Shown piece after piece: positions 2,927 through 56,730 of a stretch of DNA of 64,000 nt. The translations under genes were made by a program, and so were the position numbers. A model generated the notes under the pieces. That model did not search any database and was not told the origin of the DNA. It saw only the letters and a program-made list of their open reading frames with translations. Position 1 is the first letter of the stretch. Each line of letters starts with the position of its first letter. The stretch is from the NCBI GenBank assembly GCA_040384665.1, contig JAZKIY010000016.1, positions 11,334 to 75,333 on the forward strand, in the 5' to 3' direction. Source of the stretch: Pseudomonadota bacterium. Its GTDB lineage: Bacteria > Pseudomonadota > Gammaproteobacteria > Burkholderiales > Burkholderiaceae_C.

Positions 2927-3729
2927 CGCAGCGCCCCCGCTTCCCGGCACAGGAAACCCTGCCCACCTGGGTCAAGCGCGCTCCTGAAAAAGGAGCTATA
3001 CCGCTAGGTTTTACTAAGGCTGGACCCATAAAAGGCTTAAAAAATGAGGGGTTGCCCTTGCCCGTGGCCGGTTGGGGCATGGATTCGGCCCGGGTGCGCG
3101 AGCGCATGGTCGCGTTGCTGGCACGGCAAGGCGTGTCCGACCCGCAGGTGCTGGCCGCCATGGGGCGTGTCGAGCGCCACCGCTTCGTCGATTCCGCGTT
3201 GGCCAACCAGGCTTACGAAGACACCAGCCTGCCCATCGGGCTTGGGCAAACCATCTCCAAGCCTGGCGTGGTGGCGCGCATGCTGGAACTGCTGCGTGAG
3301 CCCTGGGTGGGTTCCGGGCAGCCGCTCGGCCGGGTGTTGGAGATTGGCACCGGCTGTGGCTACCAGGCCGCCGTGTTGAGTGCGCTGGCAAGCGAGGTCT
3401 ACAGCATGGAACGCCTGCGCGGCCTGCACGAGAAAGCCCGCGAGAACCTGCGCCCGTTCCGGCTTGCCAACCTGCACCTGCTGCTGGGCGACGGCATGGC
3501 CGGCTACCCCAAGGGGGCGCCGTACGCGGCCATCATTGCCGCCGCCGGTGGCGAGGCCTTGCCGACCACCTGGATCGACCAGCTCGCGCCCGGTGGCCGC
3601 CTGGTGGCACCGGTGTGCCAGCCCAACGGCGCACAGGCACTGACGGTGGTGGACAAGACGCCCACAGGCATTGTTCAGCGCTTCCTCGAGCCCGTCCTCT
3701 TTGTGCCCCTAAAATCGGGTGTTGCATGA
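2923..3729 (+). CDS. pcm: protein-L-isoaspartate O-methyltransferase
   Basis: [16 protein letters not shown] and SAM motif [19 protein letters not shown] 2923 overlaps the surE stop (ATGA). Alternative start ATG 3079 would give an E. coli-length protein, so the start is uncertain. Confidence 0.85.
2980..3049 (+). repeat. low-GC palindromic element, copy A (forward)
   Basis: Hairpin gctcctgaaaaaggagc plus core ggagctataccgctaggttttactaaggctgga (2992-3024). Lies in the pcm N-terminal extension or the surE-pcm spacer. Confidence 0.8.
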
Positions 3730-6398: not shown

Positions 6399-7874
6399 AT
6401 GACCGCAGCGACACCGCCAGACACTCCTCCATTGCCCGCAGGCCAGTCCCACGACCCCACCCGCGCCCCCGACACCGCCCACTCCCTGCCGCCAGGCCAC
6501 CTGCGGGTGGACGCGCTCGACATCGATGCGCAGGGCGTGGCCCGCAAACCCGATGGCAAGGTGGTCTTCATCGAAGGCGCACTGCCGTTCGAGGAGGTGA
6601 GCGTCAACGTTCACCGCAAGAAAAACAACTGGGAGCAGGGCACCGTCACGGCCATCCACCGCGAGTCGTCACAGCGCGTGAAGCCCGGCTGCCCGCATTT
6701 TGGCCTGCACGCCGGCGCCTGCGGCGGCTGCAAGATGCAGCACCTGCACCCGGCTGCGCAGGTGGCCGTCAAGCAGCGGGTGCTGGAAGACAACCTGTGG
6801 CACCTTGGCAAGGTCAAGGCCGAAACGGTGATGCGGCCCATCGAAGGCCCGGCCTGGGGCTACCGCTACCGCGCCCGGCTGTCGGTGCGCCATGTGCACA
6901 AGAAGGGCGAGGTGTTGGTGGGGTTCCACGAGCGCAAGAGCCGCTACGTGGCCGACATGCGCGAATGCCATGTGTTGCCGCCGCATGTGAATGCGATGCT
7001 GATGCCGCTGCGCGCGCTGGTTGCCTCGATGGACGCGATTGAAACACTCCCGCAGATTGAACTCGCCTGTGGTGACGAGGTGACCGCGCTGGTGCTGCGC
7101 CACCTGGAACCGCTCAGCCAGGCCGACCTGGCACGGCTGCGTGCGTTTGCGGTCGAACGACCTGGCTTGCAGTGGTGGTTGCAGTCCAAAGGACCAGAGA
7201 CGGTCAAGCTGCTCGACGAAGGCGGGCCTGAACTGGCGTACGCGCTGCCGCAATTCGGCATCACCATGCCCTTCAAGCCAACCGACTTCACCCAGGTCAA
7301 CCCGCACATCAACCGCGTGCTGGTGGCGCGTGCGCTGCGCCTGCTCGACCCCCAGCGGTCCGAGCGCGTGATCGACTGGTTCTGTGGTTTGGGCAACTTC
7401 ACGCTGCCGCTGGCCACGTTGGCCGGCGAAGTGCTTGGGATTGAGGGCAGCGAGGCCCTGGTGGCACGTTCCAGAGAGAATTTGAAGCTGAATCAGGATC
7501 AAGCCCTAGTGAAAACTAGGTTGTCAGCTACTAAATTTGTAGCGCGAAACCTCTTTGAGATGACCCCCGAGTTGCTGGCCGCTGACGGCCACGCCGACAA
7601 GTGGCTGGTGGACCCACCGCGCGAAGGCGCGTTCGCACTCGCCCAGGCATTGGCCGGCCTGAACCAGCAGCATCTGGCTGGGACGCCGTGGCCCGCTGGC
7701 TGGACCCCGCCCCAGCGCATCGTCTACGTCAGTTGCAACCCCGCCACGCTGGCCCGCGATGCCGGCCTGCTTGTGAACCTGGGGGGTTACCGCTGCACAG
7801 CGGCCGGGGTGGTGAACATGTTCCCGCACACAGCCCACGTCGAAAGCATCGCAGTCTTCGACCGCGTAGCGTAA
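6399..7874 (+). CDS. rlmD: 23S rRNA (uracil-C5)-methyltransferase RlmD (RumA)
   Basis: TRAM-like N-terminal part, Fe-S Cys cluster [21 protein letters not shown] motif [21 protein letters not shown], and catalytic [13 protein letters not shown]. Confidence 0.85.
7474..7543 (-). repeat. low-GC palindromic element, copy E (reverse), inside rlmD
   Basis: The reverse complement of 7499-7531 is gtagctgacaacctagttttcactagggcttga. Hairpin gctacaaatttagtagc. Confidence 0.8.
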
Positions 7875-23540: not shown

Positions 23541-25397
23541 ATGGCATTGCTGCAAATTTCTGAACCAGGCTACTCGCCCGACCCGCACACCCGGCGCATT
23601 GCGCTGGGCATTGACCTGGGCACCACGCACTCGCTGGTGGCGGCGGTGCGCAACGGTGTGGCCGAGTGCCTCCCCGACGCCCTTGGCCAGGTCGTCTTGC
23701 CTTCGGTGGTGCGCTACCTGGACAACAACGGCCGAAAAATCGGCTTTGAGGCGCAGGCCGCCCTCAGTGACGACCCGGAAAACACCATCGCTTCGGTCAA
23801 GCGCTTCATGGGGCGGGGCTTGGCCGACATTGCCAACCGCGACCAACTGCCTTACCGCTTCATCGACAAACCTGGCATGGTCGGCCTGATGACACGCGCC
23901 GGCGAGAAGTCCCCGGTGGAGGTGAGTGCCGAGATTCTGGCGACGCTGCGCTTTCGCGCCGAAGACACCTTCAACGACGACATCCATGGCGTGGTGATCA
24001 CCGTGCCGGCCTATTTTGACGACGCCCAGCGCCAGGCGACCAAAGACGCGGCCCAACTCGCCGGCCTGAACGTGCTGCGTCTGATCAACGAACCCACCGC
24101 CGCCGCGATTGCCTATGGGCTGGACAACGCCAGCGAGGGCATCTACGCGGTGTACGACCTCGGTGGCGGCACCTTCGACATTTCCATCCTGCGCCTGAGC
24201 CGTGGCGTGTTCGAAGTGATTGCCACCGGCGGCGACTCGGCCCTGGGCGGCGACGACTACGACCGCGCGCTGGCCGACTGGGTGCTGCAGCAAACCGGCA
24301 CCGTGGTGGACAACGCCTCCGACAAGGCCGCAATGAAAGTTGCCGCACGGGCCTGCAAGGAAGCGCTGACTGCTACAGATTCCGTAGCATTCTCGGTAGA
24401 TTTGACTGAGGCTCAGCTGCGATTTGAGGTAAAAATTGCCGATTTTGAGGCAACAACGGCTGCCTTGACCGCCAAAACCCTGTCCGCGGTCCGCAAGGCC
24501 CTGCGCGATGCCAAGCTGCAGAAAGACGAGGTCAAGGGCGTGGTGATGGTGGGTGGCTCCACCCGCATGCCGCAGATCCAGCGCGCCGTGGCCGATTTCT
24601 TTGGCCAGGCACCGCTGAACAACCTCAACCCCGACGAGGTGGTGGCGCTGGGCGCCGCCATCCAGGCCAACCAGCTGGCCGGCAACGCCGGCAGCGAAGA
24701 CCTGCTGCTGCTCGACGTGATCCCGCTCTCACTCGGCATCGAGACCATGGGCGGTCTGGTCGAACGCATCGTGCCCCGCAACCAGACCATCCCCACCGCC
24801 ATGGCGCAGGACTTCACCACCTACCAGGACGGCCAGACCGCGCTGGCGCTGCACGTGGTGCAGGGCGAACGCGACCTGGTGGCCGACTGCCGCAGCCTGG
24901 CGCGTTTCGAGCTGCGCGGCATTCCGCCGATGGCCGCCGGCGCCGCCCGCATCCGGGTGGTGTTCACGGTCGACGCCGACGGCCTGCTGAGCGTCAGTGC
25001 CAAAGAGCAGGGCAGCGGCGTCGAGGCGAAAATCGACGTCAAACCGTCTTATGGCCTGACCGACGACCAGATCGCCACCATGCTGCAAGACAGCTTTGCC
25101 ACCGCCGAACAAGACATGCAGGCCCGCGCGCTGGCCGAAGCCCGGCTGGAGGCCGACCGCATGCTGCTGGCGATTGGCTCGGCACTGGCGGCCGATGCCG
25201 ACTTGCTGGGCACGCAAGAGCGTGCCACCATCGACACGCTGGCCCAGGCCGTGGTGGCGGCCAAACCCTTGACCGATGCCAAGGCGATTGAAGCGGCCAC
25301 CGAAGCGCTGGCCAAAGGCACCGAAGCCTTTGCCGCCATGCGCATGAACCGGGGCATCCACAAAGCCCTGGCCGGCAAAAATATCGAGACGGTCTGA
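23541..25397 (+). CDS. hscA: Fe-S protein assembly chaperone HscA (Hsp70 family)
   Basis: [11 protein letters not shown]-terminus, [26 protein letters not shown] and [10 protein letters not shown] motifs. Confidence 0.95.
24372..24450 (+). repeat. low-GC palindromic element-like patch, copy G (forward), inside hscA
   Basis: Hairpin gctacagattccgtagc plus core gtagcattctcggtagatttgactgaggctcag (24384-24416). This is the most diverged copy. Confidence 0.7.
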
Positions 25398-28864: not shown

Positions 28865-28866
28865 AT

Positions 28867-28936
28867 GCTCTGTTTTTGATAGCTGAATCGCGAGATTTGA
28901 CTAGGGCTTGCAGTGCTTTTTGATCGAATTTGCGGC
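28867..28936 (+). repeat. low-GC palindromic element, copy D (forward), between the convergent FGase-like gene and pyrD
   Basis: Hairpin gctctgtttttgatagc plus core atagctgaatcgcgagatttgactagggcttgc (28879-28911). An adjacent inverted half-core ccctagaacactctag sits at 28849-28864. Confidence 0.8.
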
Positions 28937-36284: not shown

Positions 36285-37093
36285 CGAGGTTTGACGTTGT
36301 CGTTCAGGGCCGCCAGCGCCATCTTGTCCACCAGCGCGGGCCAGAGGAATTTGAGCACACGGGCCAGCTTGTCGCGCGGCGTCATCAGCACCTCGCGTTG
36401 GCGGCGTTCCAGCCCGGTCAGCATCAGCTGCACGCAGGTGGCCACTGGCATGGCCTTGTCTTCTTTCAGGCCGCTGGTGCCAGCGGGCTGGCCGGCGGCG
36501 TTGAAGCCACGGCGGCGGATGTCTGTCGCCACCACGCCGGGGTAGGCGATGGTGACGCTGACGCCTGCACCCAACAACTCGGTGCGCAGCGCTTCAAAAA
36601 AGCCGGTCATCGCGAACTTGGTGGCGCTGTAGGCGGTGCGGCCCGGCACGCCCACCAGCCCGGCCAGGGACGACACTGCCAGGATGCTGCCACGCGTCGC
36701 CTTGAGGTGCGGCAGCGCCGCGTGCGTGCACCAGACGCTGCCCCAGTGGTTGATGCGCATCAGCGTTTCGTACCAGGCCAGGTCGGCGGCCTGCACATCG
36801 GCCAGCAGCGCCTGGGCCGACATGCCGGCGTTGTTGACCAGCACGTCGATGCGGCCAAAGCGGGCCACGGCAGCGTCAATCAGGGCGCGGCACTGCGGCT
36901 CGACCGACACGTCGGCCGGCACCACCAGCGTTTGCGCGCCCAGCGCCTCGCACGACGCCGCCACCGCCGCGAGCGCATTGGCGTTGCGGGCGGCCAGCAC
37001 CAGTGCGCAGGCACCGCCATGGGTGGCGGCCAGCTGGCGCGCCATCTCGGCGCCCAGGCCTTCCGATGCGCCGGTAATCACTATTGTTTTCAT
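36281..37093 (-). CDS. short-chain dehydrogenase/reductase (SDR)
   Basis: ATG 37093. MKTIVITGASEGLG cofactor motif and the YSATKFAMTGF catalytic YxxxK. Confidence 0.8.
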   Translation of the reverse strand: MKTIVITGASEGLGAEMARQLAATHGGACALVLAARNANALAAVAASCEALGAQTLVVPADVSVEPQCRALIDAAVARFGRIDVLVNNAGMSAQALLADVQAADLAWYETLMRINHWGSVWCTHAALPHLKATRGSILAVSSLAGLVGVPGRTAYSATKFAMTGFFEALRTELLGAGVSVTIAYPGVVATDIRRRGFNAAGQPAGTSGLKEDKAMPVATCVQLMLTGLERRQREVLMTPRDKLARVLKFLWPALVDKMALAALNDNVKPR

Positions 37094-37149
37094 AGCTGAA
37101 CCTCTAGGTTTCACTAAGGCTGGAGGCCGAAAAGACTTGAAAAATGCGG
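37080..37149 (+). repeat. low-GC palindromic element, copy B (forward), abutting the SDR start codon
   Basis: Hairpin (a)ctattgttttcatagc plus core atagctgaacctctaggtttcactaaggctgga (37092-37124). Confidence 0.8.
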
Positions 37150-46764: not shown

Positions 46765-46834
46765 GTCTCTTTTTTAGGTCAAATAGGCTTCAAGCCCTAG
46801 TACAGTCTAGCGATGTTGCTATTGAATGAATAGC
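46765..46834 (-). repeat. low-GC palindromic element, copy F (reverse), filling the ridA / transglutaminase spacer
   Basis: The reverse complement of 46790-46822 is atagcaacatcgctagactgtactagggcttga. Hairpin gctattcattcaatagc. Confidence 0.8.
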
Positions 46835-46836
46835 GT

Positions 46837-54282: not shown

Positions 54283-56730
54283 ATGCCCCCGCCTTTGAAA
54301 CCGCCTTCCCCCGCCAAGCCGTCCGGCTGGGCTGCGCCCGCCGCGCTGGGGCCGGGCTTGCTGGCGGCGATTGGCGGAGTCGCCTGGCAGTTGCAGCAGG
54401 CGGCGCTCTGGGCTGGCTGGCGGTATGCGGGGTTGGCGTTGGCCGCGTTGGTGCTGCTGGTGTCTGCCTTGCGTTTCACCCGCGCTGGCCACTGGCGCAA
54501 CGGCTGGCTCTGCATCGGCCTGGTGGTGCTCGGTTTCAGCCTGACCGGGGCGCGCGCCAGTCTGCAGGCCCTGGAGCGGCTGGACCCGGCGCTGGAGGGG
54601 CGCGACATCGTGGTCACCGGCTGGGTGGCGGCCATGCCACAGCGCCATGCCAACGGCCTGCGGCTGCGTTTTGCGGTGGACTCGGCCAGCCTCGCCGGGC
54701 AACCGGTGCGCCTGCCGCCGTTGCTGCAACTTGGCTGGTACAGCGGCGCCTGGCGCGCCGAGCCGACCGATGCCCTGGCGCTGCAGCCTTCGCCTCCCGA
54801 GGTGAAGGCCGGTGAGCAGTGGCAGCTGACGGTGCGGCTGAAAGCGCCGCACGGCAACCACAACCCGCACGGGTTTGACTACGAACTGTGGCTGTGGGAC
54901 CAGCAGGTCCATGCCACCGGTTATGTGCGCGCCAGCGCCAAAGACCCCCCACCCCAGCGGCTTGCCAGCAGCTGGCGCTACCCGGTGGAGCAGGCCCGCC
55001 AGCGGGTGCGCGACGCGGTGTTTGTGCAGGTGCCCGACCCCCAGGTCGCGGGCGTGATTGCGGCGCTGGTCACCGGCGACCAGAGCGCCATTGACCGCGC
55101 CGACTGGGACGTCTTCCGTGCCACCGGCGTGGCGCACCTGATGAGCATCTCCGGCCTGCACATAACCATGTTTGCCTGGCTCGCCGCGGCGCTGGTGAAC
55201 GCGCTGTGGCGGCGCAGCGCGCGGCTGTGCCTGTGGCTGCCCGCGCCACACGCCGCGCTGGCGGGTGGCGTGGCGCTGGCGGCGGCCTACGCGCTGTTCA
55301 GCGGCTGGGGGGTGCCAGCCCAGCGCACCGTGTGCATGCTGGCTGTGGCAGCGCTGCTGCGGGCGTCGGGCCGGCACTGGCCGCCCATCACCCGCTGGCT
55401 GCTGGTGATGGCCGTGGTGGTGGCGCTCGACCCCTGGGCCTTGCTGCAGGCCGGTTTCTGGCTCAGTTTTGTCGCCGTGGCGGTGCTGTTTGCTACAAAT
55501 ACAGGAGCTGAATCGCAAGGTTCTACTAAGGCTTGGGGCAGATTTCGTTTAATTTTGAGTGAACAGGCGGTGGTCACGGTCGCTTTGGCACCTTTGACGC
55601 TGCTGTTGTTCGGCCAGGTCTCGCTGGTGGGCATGCTGGCCAACCTGCTGGCGATTCCCTGGGTGACGCTGGTGCTGACGCCGCTGGCCATGGCGGGTGC
55701 GGTGTTCGCGCCCCTCTGGACGCTGGCCGCCGGCGCGACCGACGCGCTGGTGTGGCTGCTGCGGCCCATGGCCGGCTGGCCGTGGGCCACCTATGCCACC
55801 GCGGCCGCGCCATTGTGGGCCGGCGTGGCGGGCCTGGCCGGCGGGGTGCTGCTGGTCTGGCGCTGGCCGTGGCCCTTGCGTGCGCTCGGTCTGCCCCTGT
55901 TGCTGCCAGTGCTGCTGTGGCAGGCGCCACGCCCGGCGCCGGGAGAGTTTGAGCTGCTCGCGGCCGACGTGGGGCAGGGCACCGCCGTGCTGGTGCGCAC
56001 CGCCCGCCACACCCTGGTGTACGACGCCGGCCCGCGTTTTTCGAGCGAGAGCGACGCCGGGCACCGGGTGCTGGTGCCGCTGCTGCGGGCGCTGGACGAG
56101 CGGGTCGACACGCTGGTGTTGAGCCACCGCGACCTGGACCACACCGGCGGCGCCGAAGCCGTGCTGGCCACGCAGCCGCAGGCCCGCCTGCTCAGCTCCA
56201 TCGAAGACCAGCACCCGCTGCAGGCGCTGCGGCCCGCCACCCGCTGCCATGCCGGCCAGCGCTGGGACTGGGATGGGGTGGCATTCGAGGTGCTGCACCC
56301 GCTGGCCGGCGACTACCAGACGCCGCAAAAAAGCAACGCCATGAGCTGTGTGCTGCGCGTGTCCAACGGCCGGCACCATGCGCTGCTGGCCGGCGACATC
56401 GAAGCCGCGCAGGAGGCACGGTTGGTGGCCAGTGGGGCCCCGCTGCAGGCCGATGTGTTGCTGGTGCCGCACCACGGCAGCAAGACATCGTCCACCAGCG
56501 CGTTTCTGGCCCAGGTGTCACCCCGTTTCGCGCTGGTGCAGGCCGCCTACCGCAACCGCTTTGGCCACCCGGCGCCAGCGGTGCTGGCACGTTACGACGC
56601 ACTCGGCATCGCGGTGTTCGACTCGCCCGGCTGCGGCGCCATGGCCTGGCGCTCGGCACAGCCCGCAACGCTGGACTGTCACCGCAATGCCCGGCGCCGC
56701 TACTGGCACCACCACACCGGTGCAGAATGA
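54283..56730 (+). CDS. comEC: DNA internalization-related competence protein ComEC/Rec2
   Basis: Polytopic competence domain (HLMSISGLHITMFAWL) plus a C-terminal MBL domain (LSHRDLDHTGG, LVPHHGSKTS). Confidence 0.8.
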   Translation: MPPPLKPPSPAKPSGWAAPAALGPGLLAAIGGVAWQLQQAALWAGWRYAGLALAALVLLVSALRFTRAGHWRNGWLCIGLVVLGFSLTGARASLQALERLDPALEGRDIVVTGWVAAMPQRHANGLRLRFAVDSASLAGQPVRLPPLLQLGWYSGAWRAEPTDALALQPSPPEVKAGEQWQLTVRLKAPHGNHNPHGFDYELWLWDQQVHATGYVRASAKDPPPQRLASSWRYPVEQARQRVRDAVFVQVPDPQVAGVIAALVTGDQSAIDRADWDVFRATGVAHLMSISGLHITMFAWLAAALVNALWRRSARLCLWLPAPHAALAGGVALAAAYALFSGWGVPAQRTVCMLAVAALLRASGRHWPPITRWLLVMAVVVALDPWALLQAGFWLSFVAVAVLFATNTGAESQGSTKAWGRFRLILSEQAVVTVALAPLTLLLFGQVSLVGMLANLLAIPWVTLVLTPLAMAGAVFAPLWTLAAGATDALVWLLRPMAGWPWATYATAAAPLWAGVAGLAGGVLLVWRWPWPLRALGLPLLLPVLLWQAPRPAPGEFELLAADVGQGTAVLVRTARHTLVYDAGPRFSSESDAGHRVLVPLLRALDERVDTLVLSHRDLDHTGGAEAVLATQPQARLLSSIEDQHPLQALRPATRCHAGQRWDWDGVAFEVLHPLAGDYQTPQKSNAMSCVLRVSNGRHHALLAGDIEAAQEARLVASGAPLQADVLLVPHHGSKTSSTSAFLAQVSPRFALVQAAYRNRFGHPAPAVLARYDALGIAVFDSPGCGAMAWRSAQPATLDCHRNARRRYWHHHTGAE
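55492..55561 (+). repeat. low-GC palindromic element, copy C (forward), inside comEC
   Basis: Hairpin gctacaaatacaggagc plus core ggagctgaatcgcaaggttctactaaggcttgg (55504-55536). Confidence 0.8.

Follow-up and report, generated by a model that had tools for sequence, protein, structure and literature searches.

The hscA gene and its low-GC patch

The analysed stretch, hereafter the window, comprises 64,000 nucleotides (nt) of contig JAZKIY010000016.1 (positions 11,334 to 75,333) from a bacterium of the family Comamonadaceae, whose genome is designated G000. It carries an isc operon with the gene row iscS, iscU, iscA, hscB, hscA and fdx, and the subject of this study is a low-GC patch inside hscA, which belongs to a family of 66-nt DNA elements dispersed through the genome. 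The hscA gene (positions 23541–25397, plus strand) was recognised from the list of open reading frames and with Pfam, and it encodes an Hsp70-type Fe-S cluster chaperone of 618 amino acids (aa) followed by a stop codon. The protein scored 589 bits against the Pfam HSP70 model and aligned along nearly its full length to DnaK structures (E 1e-124), and its residues 391–616 aligned to the substrate-binding domain of E. coli HscA (1u00, E 2.6e-77). The Hsp70 fold, the HscA-type substrate-binding domain and the location after hscB in the isc operon identify the product as HscA.

The first-pass annotation, which was made from the letters of the window alone, had reported a low-GC patch inside this gene and proposed comparing its G + C content at third codon positions (GC3) with that of the flanks. 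Both the GC windows and the GC3 contrast bore this out. The G + C content in 80-nt windows falls to 0.46–0.49 at 24360–24480, with 0.6–0.75 on both flanks, and GC3 is 0.35–0.39 in the patch (0.39 over 33 codons) against about 0.85 in the remaining part of hscA. The lowest 25-codon GC3 window of the entire gene lies within the patch.

The element copy extends over 24371–24436 on the plus strand and is read in frame, its position 1 being the third base of codon T277 and its positions 2–64 forming the codons A278–K298. It begins with the palindrome GCTAC-N7-GTAGC (24372–24388, plus strand, element positions 2–18), which encodes A-T-D-S-V-A and holds the bases C3, T4, A16, G17 and C18 that are invariant in the family. 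The core AGATTTGACTGAGGCT follows at 24398–24413 (plus strand, positions 28–43), and the tail CGATTTGAGGTAAAAAT at 24420–24436 (plus strand, positions 50–66) encodes R-F-E-V-K with the rare codons CGA, TTT, GTA and AAA. The 5' edge of the copy is sharp. On the 3' side, unlike in the family average, low GC3 runs for about 29 nt beyond position 66, as an extension of about ten A/T-ending codons (24437–24465, plus strand) that lies outside the element model. This extension is specific to hscA, because the other family copies revert to 0.67 G + C right after position 66.

Membership of the patch in the repeat family

An initial repeat search grouped positions 24386–24415 with four other loci of the window. 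A search with nhmmer seeded with four other window copies retrieved 223 copies, and then 271 at E ≤ 1e-3, from the genome of 3.0 Mb and 64.8% G + C. The unit is 65–66 nt long, has about 42% G + C and is sharply delimited, in its sequence information as well as in its composition. Its consensus is TGCTACTGATTTAATAGCTGAATCGCCAGGTTTCACTAGGGCTTGAGGCCGATTTGGCTTGAAAAT, and the motif carries about 56 bits of information over 66 nt. This information is distributed very unevenly: the invariant or near-invariant bases are C3, T4, A16, G17, C18, A28, G29, T32, A35, C36, T37, A38, G40, G41, C42, T43, A63 and A64, while the remaining columns carry almost none (0.1–0.3 bits beside invariant columns).

The segment 24371–24435 aligned to positions 1–65 of the family model with no gaps (36.4 bits, E 1.1e-8, nhmmer, whole genome), and a leave-one-out model from which the hscA copy had been excluded still gave 33.7 bits (E 1.5e-7). 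The gapless alignment to the repeat family that the first-pass annotation had described is therefore upheld. Every invariant or near-invariant family base is intact in the hscA copy except A38 in the core, which is replaced by G, and its identity to the consensus (42/66) is within the range of the family (36–59). Base or codon shuffles of the patch scored at most 8.4 bits, and when the same peptide was encoded with random synonymous codons, the 99.9th percentile was 19–22 bits and the maximum 30.6 (n = 5000). The codon choice of the patch is thus itself element-like, far more so than the peptide requires. The low-GC patch genuinely belongs to the family of dispersed 66-nt DNA elements, as an ancient copy that is read in frame.

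Protein structure and length neutrality

The segment was aligned across 30 HscA orthologues with no gaps and comprises 33–34 residues in all but three of them, which amounts to a net change of 0 against the outgroup. The absence of a net insertion, noted earlier from the length of the protein, is thus confirmed. In an AlphaFold2 model based on 38 orthologues (pLDDT, the model's own confidence score, about 90), helix 259–275 is followed by strand 281–287, a turn, strand 292–298 and helix 299–305, and in the alignment with DnaK the patch falls within the sheet that is flanked by the subdomain IIB helices. According to this model, the 22 codons of the element (residues 278–299) encode the whole IIB beta-hairpin, residues 281–298. 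The mapping agrees with the location in subdomain IIB of the nucleotide-binding domain suggested by the first-pass annotation.

Read in the hscA frame, the element consensus gives the peptide ATDLIAESPGFTRA*GRFGLKI. The patch departs from it mostly at alternating strand positions, namely V282, F284, V286, L288, L293 and V297, at which it has hydrophobic residues of the outgroup type. At the protein level the patch is less conserved, with an identity of about 45% compared with about 76% for the remaining part of HscA, yet the same rare codons persist.

Distribution and age among relatives

The orthologous hscA site scored 43 bits against the family model in the sister species G002, while in the congener G004 and in sister genera the match was limited to the palindrome part. 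The gene-wide GC3 minimum falls at residues 268–278 in 10 of the 13 orthologues from this genus plus sister genera, whereas more distant members of the Comamonadaceae show no such minimum at the patch, where their GC3 is about 0.96. Among 80 further hscA genes of the Comamonadaceae, the GC3 dip was present in 31 and the exact sequence GCTAC-N7-GTAGC in 18. Several Rhodoferax- and Polaromonas-type hscA genes reached 19–28 bits (up to 27.6) against the model of this genome and have much of the core in common, which reads AGATTTGAC.AGGGCT in the Rhodoferax-type genes. The element core found in the hscA gene studied here is retained in G002 and in the Rhodoferax-type sequences L116, L129, L132 and L136, and more diverged in the Polaromonas-type L135. 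The motif CGATTTGA of the element tail is conserved in sister genera.

In a tree built without the patch columns, the basal lineages are free of the patch, and the peptide SATDSVAF recurs across the inner clade, being retained only where the palindrome is retained. The clade of Comamonadaceae sharing the patch at the same site consists of this genus, Rhodoferax, some Polaromonas and others; most Polaromonas and Limnohabitans have GC-rich, diverged derivatives of it. When a sequence-only covariance model was applied at E ≤ 0.1, six genomes of the clade (five with the dip) yielded 1–37 family hits and six more distant genomes with no dip yielded 0, the model being specific to this genome, so that element counts in other genera are lower bounds. 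The first-pass annotation had named, as an outcome that would refute its reading, an equally AT-rich segment in genomes free of the repeat; the opposite was observed, the patch being confined to a clade with repeat-carrying genomes. Public metagenome-assembled genomes that bear the names 'Synechococcus sp. UW140' and 'Rhizobium sp. Q54' (L119, L125, L159) contain a Polaromonas-type HscA and are probably mislabelled bins.

As to the origin of the patch, replacement, gene conversion or very old domestication had been preferred to a simple 70-nt insertion, and the orthologue alignments support this. Among these three options very old domestication is best supported, because the patch is common to several genera; the change itself may have been a one-step replacement or a stepwise conversion.

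Probable DNA-level constraint in hscA

Codon usage at the element positions was compared with that in the remaining part of hscA. In the clade, element position 4 falls in an Ala codon, which is GCT in 36 of 55 sequences, against 10% elsewhere in the gene, and position 16 falls in a Val codon, which is GTA in 32 of 67, against 3%. CGA accounts for 9 of the 15 Arg codons at the element tail, where 4% would be expected. At the two synonymous sites of the palindrome loop, all four bases occur. In orthologues with the dip from outside this genus, positions 3, 4, 16, 17 and 18 were matched in 92–94% of cases. On these sequence comparisons, the contrast between stem and loop synonymous sites is hard to explain without selection on the bases or repeated conversion.

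Properties of the family in the genome

Despite a divergence from the consensus of about 27%, 270 of the 271 copies show zero net length change. Their mean pairwise identity equals the expectation for independent columns, so the family is star-like, and no near-identical pairs were found among the 271 copies. The copies are also evenly spaced, with a mean gap of 9.8 kb and a coefficient of variation (CV) of 0.65; no gap is shorter than 1 kb and few exceed 30 kb. Uniform random placement gave a CV of 0.98 (minimum 0.81 in 2000 trials), and random choice of intergenic spacers 0.91 (minimum 0.73). Coding copies did not differ from intergenic ones when unusually large gaps between neighbours were considered. 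Orientation relative to the transcription of the flanking genes showed no bias (same 55, opposite 62), which argues against a role at the RNA level. As to replichore polarity, matches on both strands were seen by eye to be interspersed along the single contig of G002.

Inside the element, AT-rich tracts follow one another at intervals of about 12 nt (positions 7–12, 19–24, 31–36, 49–54 and 61–66), with GC-richer sequence between them, a phasing that hints at DNA bending or at protein contact on one face. Terminal inverted repeats (TIRs) were absent, the best end-to-end match being 5/12, and so were target-site duplications (TSDs), as direct repeats across the ends were no commoner than in mismatched controls for k = 4–8. 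Searches for RNA structure were also negative. An Rfam scan of the whole window gave no family at threshold; RNAalifold on 90 copies predicted no pairs, and two candidate hairpins paired no better than shuffles. No pair covariation was detected across the family, the palindrome stem included, and the RNA fold of the hscA copy was ordinary (z = -1.14). Within hscA no sigma-70-like site for an internal promoter was found, and terminator-like matches were only weak. Taken together, these features agree better with a double-stranded DNA site under constraint than with a transposon, be it live or in neutral decay. No description of the element was found in the literature searched.

Other copies in the window

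Apart from the hscA copy, the window contains intergenic copies at 2979–3043 (plus strand, nhmmer 45.2 bits) and at 28866–28927 (plus strand, 37.7 bits), the latter at the same place in G002 according to synteny and alignment. Further copies lie at 7480–7544 (minus strand, nhmmer 43.2 bits) and at 46771–46835 (minus strand, 53.0 bits), the latter with a weak orthologous copy in G004 (16 bits). The copy at 37081–37143 (plus strand, 56.7 bits) also has an orthologue in G002. Its palindrome end overlaps a minus-strand gene of the short-chain dehydrogenase/reductase (SDR) type, containing the start codon and the first codons (MKTIV), which shows that the elements also overlap gene starts. About one third of the copies not internal to genes overlap a called gene end. 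The copy at 55491–55552 (plus strand, 50.3 bits) lies in the open coding frame of a gene for a ComEC-like membrane protein and shares its reading frame of the element with the hscA copy, giving the peptide FATNTGAESQGSTKAWGRFRLI.

All five window copies in the block shared with G002 (50 kb, 92% nucleotide identity) stand at the same places in both genomes, and no presence/absence polymorphism between G000 and G002 was observed in the window. Since all five of these copies are orthologous, no insertion junction can be read from them.

Copies inside other genes

Coding frames contain 57 of the 271 copies (21%), the other 79% being intergenic in a genome of which coding DNA makes up about 85%. 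Two reading modes cover 47 of the 57: 28 copies are read on the reverse strand as approximately xLKPNRPQALVKPGDSAxK, and 19 in the hscA frame as approximately ATxSxAxSQxSTKAxGxFxLK. In positional-GC gene calls, the hosts look by sequence like DnaX, DapE, HrpA, a ChpA-like kinase and ComEC, and further ones like an RlmI-like PUA-methyltransferase, a thioredoxin-TPR protein, a FemAB-like protein and penicillin acylase. The proteins of ten host genes were inspected and four were compared with orthologues. The identifications as DapE-type peptidase, methyltransferase, thioredoxin-TPR protein and FemAB-like protein were confirmed with Pfam.

The change in protein length at the element differs between hosts. 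The RlmI-like gene (C10:141971–142034, L031, outside the window, 49 bits) resembles hscA: its copy overlies 22 native residues with a net change of 0 (22 vs. 22 aa), and the DNA identity to the element is 46/66 here against 12–20/66 in outgroups. The net change is also 0 in the thioredoxin-TPR gene (C65:15251–15315, L169, outside the window; 23 vs. 23 aa, compared with the closest relatives that have no dip), where the palindrome end overlies a native-looking NA.E.VA. In DapE (C6:20488–20550, L051, outside the window), where the palindrome end overlies a native-looking P-LLV, about 12 aa are gained relative to the outgroup, and in the FemAB-like gene (C8:112393–112457, L190, outside the window), where it overlies a native-looking IASSLIA, the gain is about 13 to 20 aa. 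ComEC is 6 aa shorter than in G004, which has an unrelated GC-rich segment, 18 nt longer, at the site of the copy. As the net length change differs among the six hosts, the native sequence that the element takes the place of varies in length; in structured regions, it is as long as the element itself.

Origin and maintenance of the hscA copy

We consider it somewhat better than even (a probability of roughly 55%) that the patch is a true, old family member that replaced the native hairpin and is now held in place by protein and DNA constraints together. A single replacement-type event in the ancestor of the clade would have placed the element in hscA, either by insertion accompanied by the loss of target DNA of the same length or by a conversion-like overwrite. 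The hydrophobic strand positions would then have been kept or restored at positions of the element with low information. Thereafter, the copy would have been subject both to the need of the protein for a hairpin and to its role as one of about 270 evenly spaced, length-constrained DNA sites, probably read by some putative DNA-binding factor. Where the DNA constraint lapsed, the patch would have drifted to GC-rich codons and its peptide would have diverged. A one-step replacement fits both the complete core shared by scattered lineages and the residues added in DapE and the FemAB-like protein.

Several points weigh against this explanation. The hscA copy is decaying in three congeners (14–16 bits in L003, L013 and L016), so that a need for the DNA site in every lineage is harder to defend. 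Beyond this genus, conservation is mainly that of the palindrome and the tail motif, and the core invariants are matched far less. The counts at synonymous sites are inflated by shared ancestry, related sequences being non-independent, and the number of coding copies rests on a crude positional-GC gene caller with approximate gene calls. Moreover, we know of no mechanism that swaps exactly 66 nt of target for a 66-nt element, the origin step being one that we infer, and we are aware of no binding factor, transcript feature or phenotype for the element.

The strongest competing explanation, to which we give clearly less credence, dispenses with insertion: native hscA codons would have changed stepwise toward the 66-nt motif wherever the protein tolerated it, much as in uptake sequences, under a genome-wide drive or selection such as biased uptake with recombination or a binding site needed about every 10 kb. 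It accounts well for the zero length change in three of the six tested genes and for the chimeric patch peptides with native-type hydrophobic residues at low-information positions. An A-x-x-x-[VI]-A peptide is only two synonymous changes from the invariant GCT-N11-AGC, and this pattern pre-exists in outgroup sequences, namely those of the FemAB-like protein (IASSLIA), of the thioredoxin-TPR protein (AMEFVA) and of one HscA (AQEEVA). The star-like family with no near-identical copies, the missing TIRs and TSDs, the even spacing and the lack of orientation bias relative to genes point the same way, and uptake sequences are known to overwrite codons, favouring certain frames and the parts of proteins that are under weaker constraint (PMC2817400). 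However, a sharp-edged 66-nt motif of about 56 bits is hard to reach by point mutation and exceeds every known uptake or architectural motif in length by a wide margin. The gains of about 12 residues in DapE and about 13–20 in the FemAB-like protein lie exactly at the element, which means that real sequence addition occurs, and just 21% of the copies are in coding DNA, itself about 85% of the genome. The core is also much alike in hscA of scattered lineages (this genus, Rhodoferax types and, loosely, some Polaromonas), as expected from one ancestral complete copy.

It is rather unlikely that the patch is a dead, selfish relic resembling a miniature inverted-repeat transposable element (MITE), one that landed in hscA during an old burst, had its length restored by a compensating deletion or replacement and has since been neutral, with no function at the DNA level. 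Housekeeping genes of Rickettsia tolerate in-frame repeats (PMC10969869), several congeners and most Polaromonas and Limnohabitans have a decaying hscA copy, and the lack of identical copies indicates that the family is not active now. Neutral decay, though, is not expected to leave a net length change in 1 of 271 copies at 27% substitution divergence, fully invariant columns beside columns of 0.1–0.3 bits, even spacing, or rare codons retained at invariant positions across genera in which other synonymous sites are saturated; TIRs and TSDs are lacking as well. Two further explanations, in which the resemblance to the repeat is coincidental or beside the point, appear very improbable. A recombination patch from a lower-GC hscA donor would leave a short stretch of atypical composition within a core gene, as is seen here, but such horizontal mosaicism accounts neither for the gapless repeat match (E about 1e-7) nor for the same kind of patch in unrelated genes; the patch was inherited vertically across the clade, and the low-GC outgroup hscA genes L027 and L024 are unlike it. 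Rare codons clustered at a domain sub-element and conserved there could serve translational pausing or co-translational folding, or the stretch could hold an RNA structure or an internal promoter. This would leave the match to 270 mostly non-coding copies unexplained, and it has to contend with the ordinary RNA fold and the absence of a promoter-like site, covariation and an Rfam match in the analyses given above. It is equally at odds with stem sites that are fixed to specific bases rather than merely to rare codons, while the synonymous sites of the loop vary freely.

Implications

Two codes appear to share one stretch of an essential gene, in which 22 codons have to form a beta-hairpin while their bases preserve the repeat invariants across genera. 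The length-neutral copies are at variance with the usual picture of a repeat inserted into a loop, and they point to an unrecognised route by which repeats enter genes or genes gain DNA signals. The even 10-kb spacing, the near absence of length change and the phased AT tracts make the family a candidate chromosome-organising or uptake signal; to our knowledge, no such signal has been described for the Comamonadaceae, an environmentally important family. We regard it as a tentative possibility, well short of an even chance, that the 66-nt unit, instead of being a relic transposon, is a working chromosomal signal of this clade, required about every 10 kb, read on double-stranded DNA by a putative factor and strong enough to overwrite codons in about 50 genes, among them those for the structural hairpin of an essential chaperone. 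Its reader may be an architectural or nucleoid protein, or a specificity factor of uptake or recombination. If this were true, no other known DNA signal laid over protein-coding sequence would come near the unit in length. In practical terms, low-GC patches of this kind should not be taken for horizontal transfer or assembly error.

Comparison with known repeat and signal systems

The family was compared with the main classes of short bacterial repeats. It resembles MITEs in being small, AT-rich, non-autonomous-looking, fixed in length, sharp-edged and dispersed, but differs from them in having no TIRs, TSDs or young near-identical copies. With repetitive extragenic palindromic (REP) sequences and bacterial interspersed mosaic elements (BIMEs) it shares abundance, short length, a mostly intergenic location with some copies overlapping gene ends, and presumed protein binding. 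REPs, however, are imperfect palindromes tagged with GTAG or GGAG, extragenic by definition and typically flanking a gene for a REP-associated tyrosine transposase (RAYT), whereas our element is not palindromic overall, and the sole Y1_Tnp-type gene of the genome (C73:1769–2095) is not flanked by copies, the nearest one being 1.8 kb away. An association of the REP/RAYT type was therefore rejected. Genes of the Y1_Tnp type are also present in G009, G010 and G014, among which G009 and G014 had no element hits in a sensitive search and G010 none in a stricter one. In G000, an AT-rich stretch with the direct repeat AATTGGGG(T/A)CAGATT lies just downstream of the Y1_Tnp gene (C73:1400–2500) and is distinct from the 66-nt element.

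The beta-proteobacterial repeat BRE, from Bordetella and the Comamonadaceae (Polaromonas, Rhodoferax, Acidovorax, Delftia), is similar in that some of its copies lie wholly within coding sequences (PMC3110155). It is about 90 bp long, has 69% G + C and forms tandem arrays of variable number (PMC3110155). Identity with BRE was rejected, since the element described here has 66 nt and about 42% G + C and is always solitary, with no gap below 1 kb.

Rickettsia palindromic elements (RPEs) are, as the work of Ogata et al. is summarised in PMC10969869, palindromic, about 100–150 bp long and added to the host protein over their whole length. The likeness consists in dispersed short in-frame repeats in unrelated genes, housekeeping genes included, with a conserved peptide, limited frames and fold-tolerant sites (PMC10969869). 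In-frame read-through of an intact gene is found here too, in an intact HscA of 618 aa and in the 57 coding copies. In place of a long palindrome, our element has only a 5-bp stem at one end (positions 2–6/14–18) with no consensus structure, it is shorter, and it lacks TIRs and TSDs. Nor do host proteins grow by the element's length: residues are replaced one for one, with a gain of 0, in HscA, the RlmI-like protein and the thioredoxin-TPR protein. Even spacing with almost no length variation is a further difference from RPEs.

Uptake signal sequences (USS) of Haemophilus, which Karlin et al. in 1996 reportedly found to be evenly spaced, and DNA uptake sequences (DUS) of Neisseria show a different set of likenesses. 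They have hundreds of copies with position-specific information, no orientation bias and AT tracts in helical phase. They overwrite codons with no change of length, in preferred frames and in less constrained regions of proteins (PMC2817400); some coding copies of our element do likewise, and two frames account for 47 of the 57. USS and DUS have cores of 9–12 nt (about 30 nt when extended) in more than 1000 copies, most or many of them in genes, whereas the element has 66 nt and 271 copies, most of them between genes, and some of its coding copies add residues: length-neutral overwriting applied to three of six tested hosts and not to the other three. The family thus does not show the features that define RPEs (net insertion, long palindrome), MITEs (TIRs, TSDs) and REP/RAYT systems (tag, flanking transposase). 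By analogy, RPEs would be its closest counterpart for in-frame tolerance, and USS and DUS for the overwriting of codons and the even spacing.

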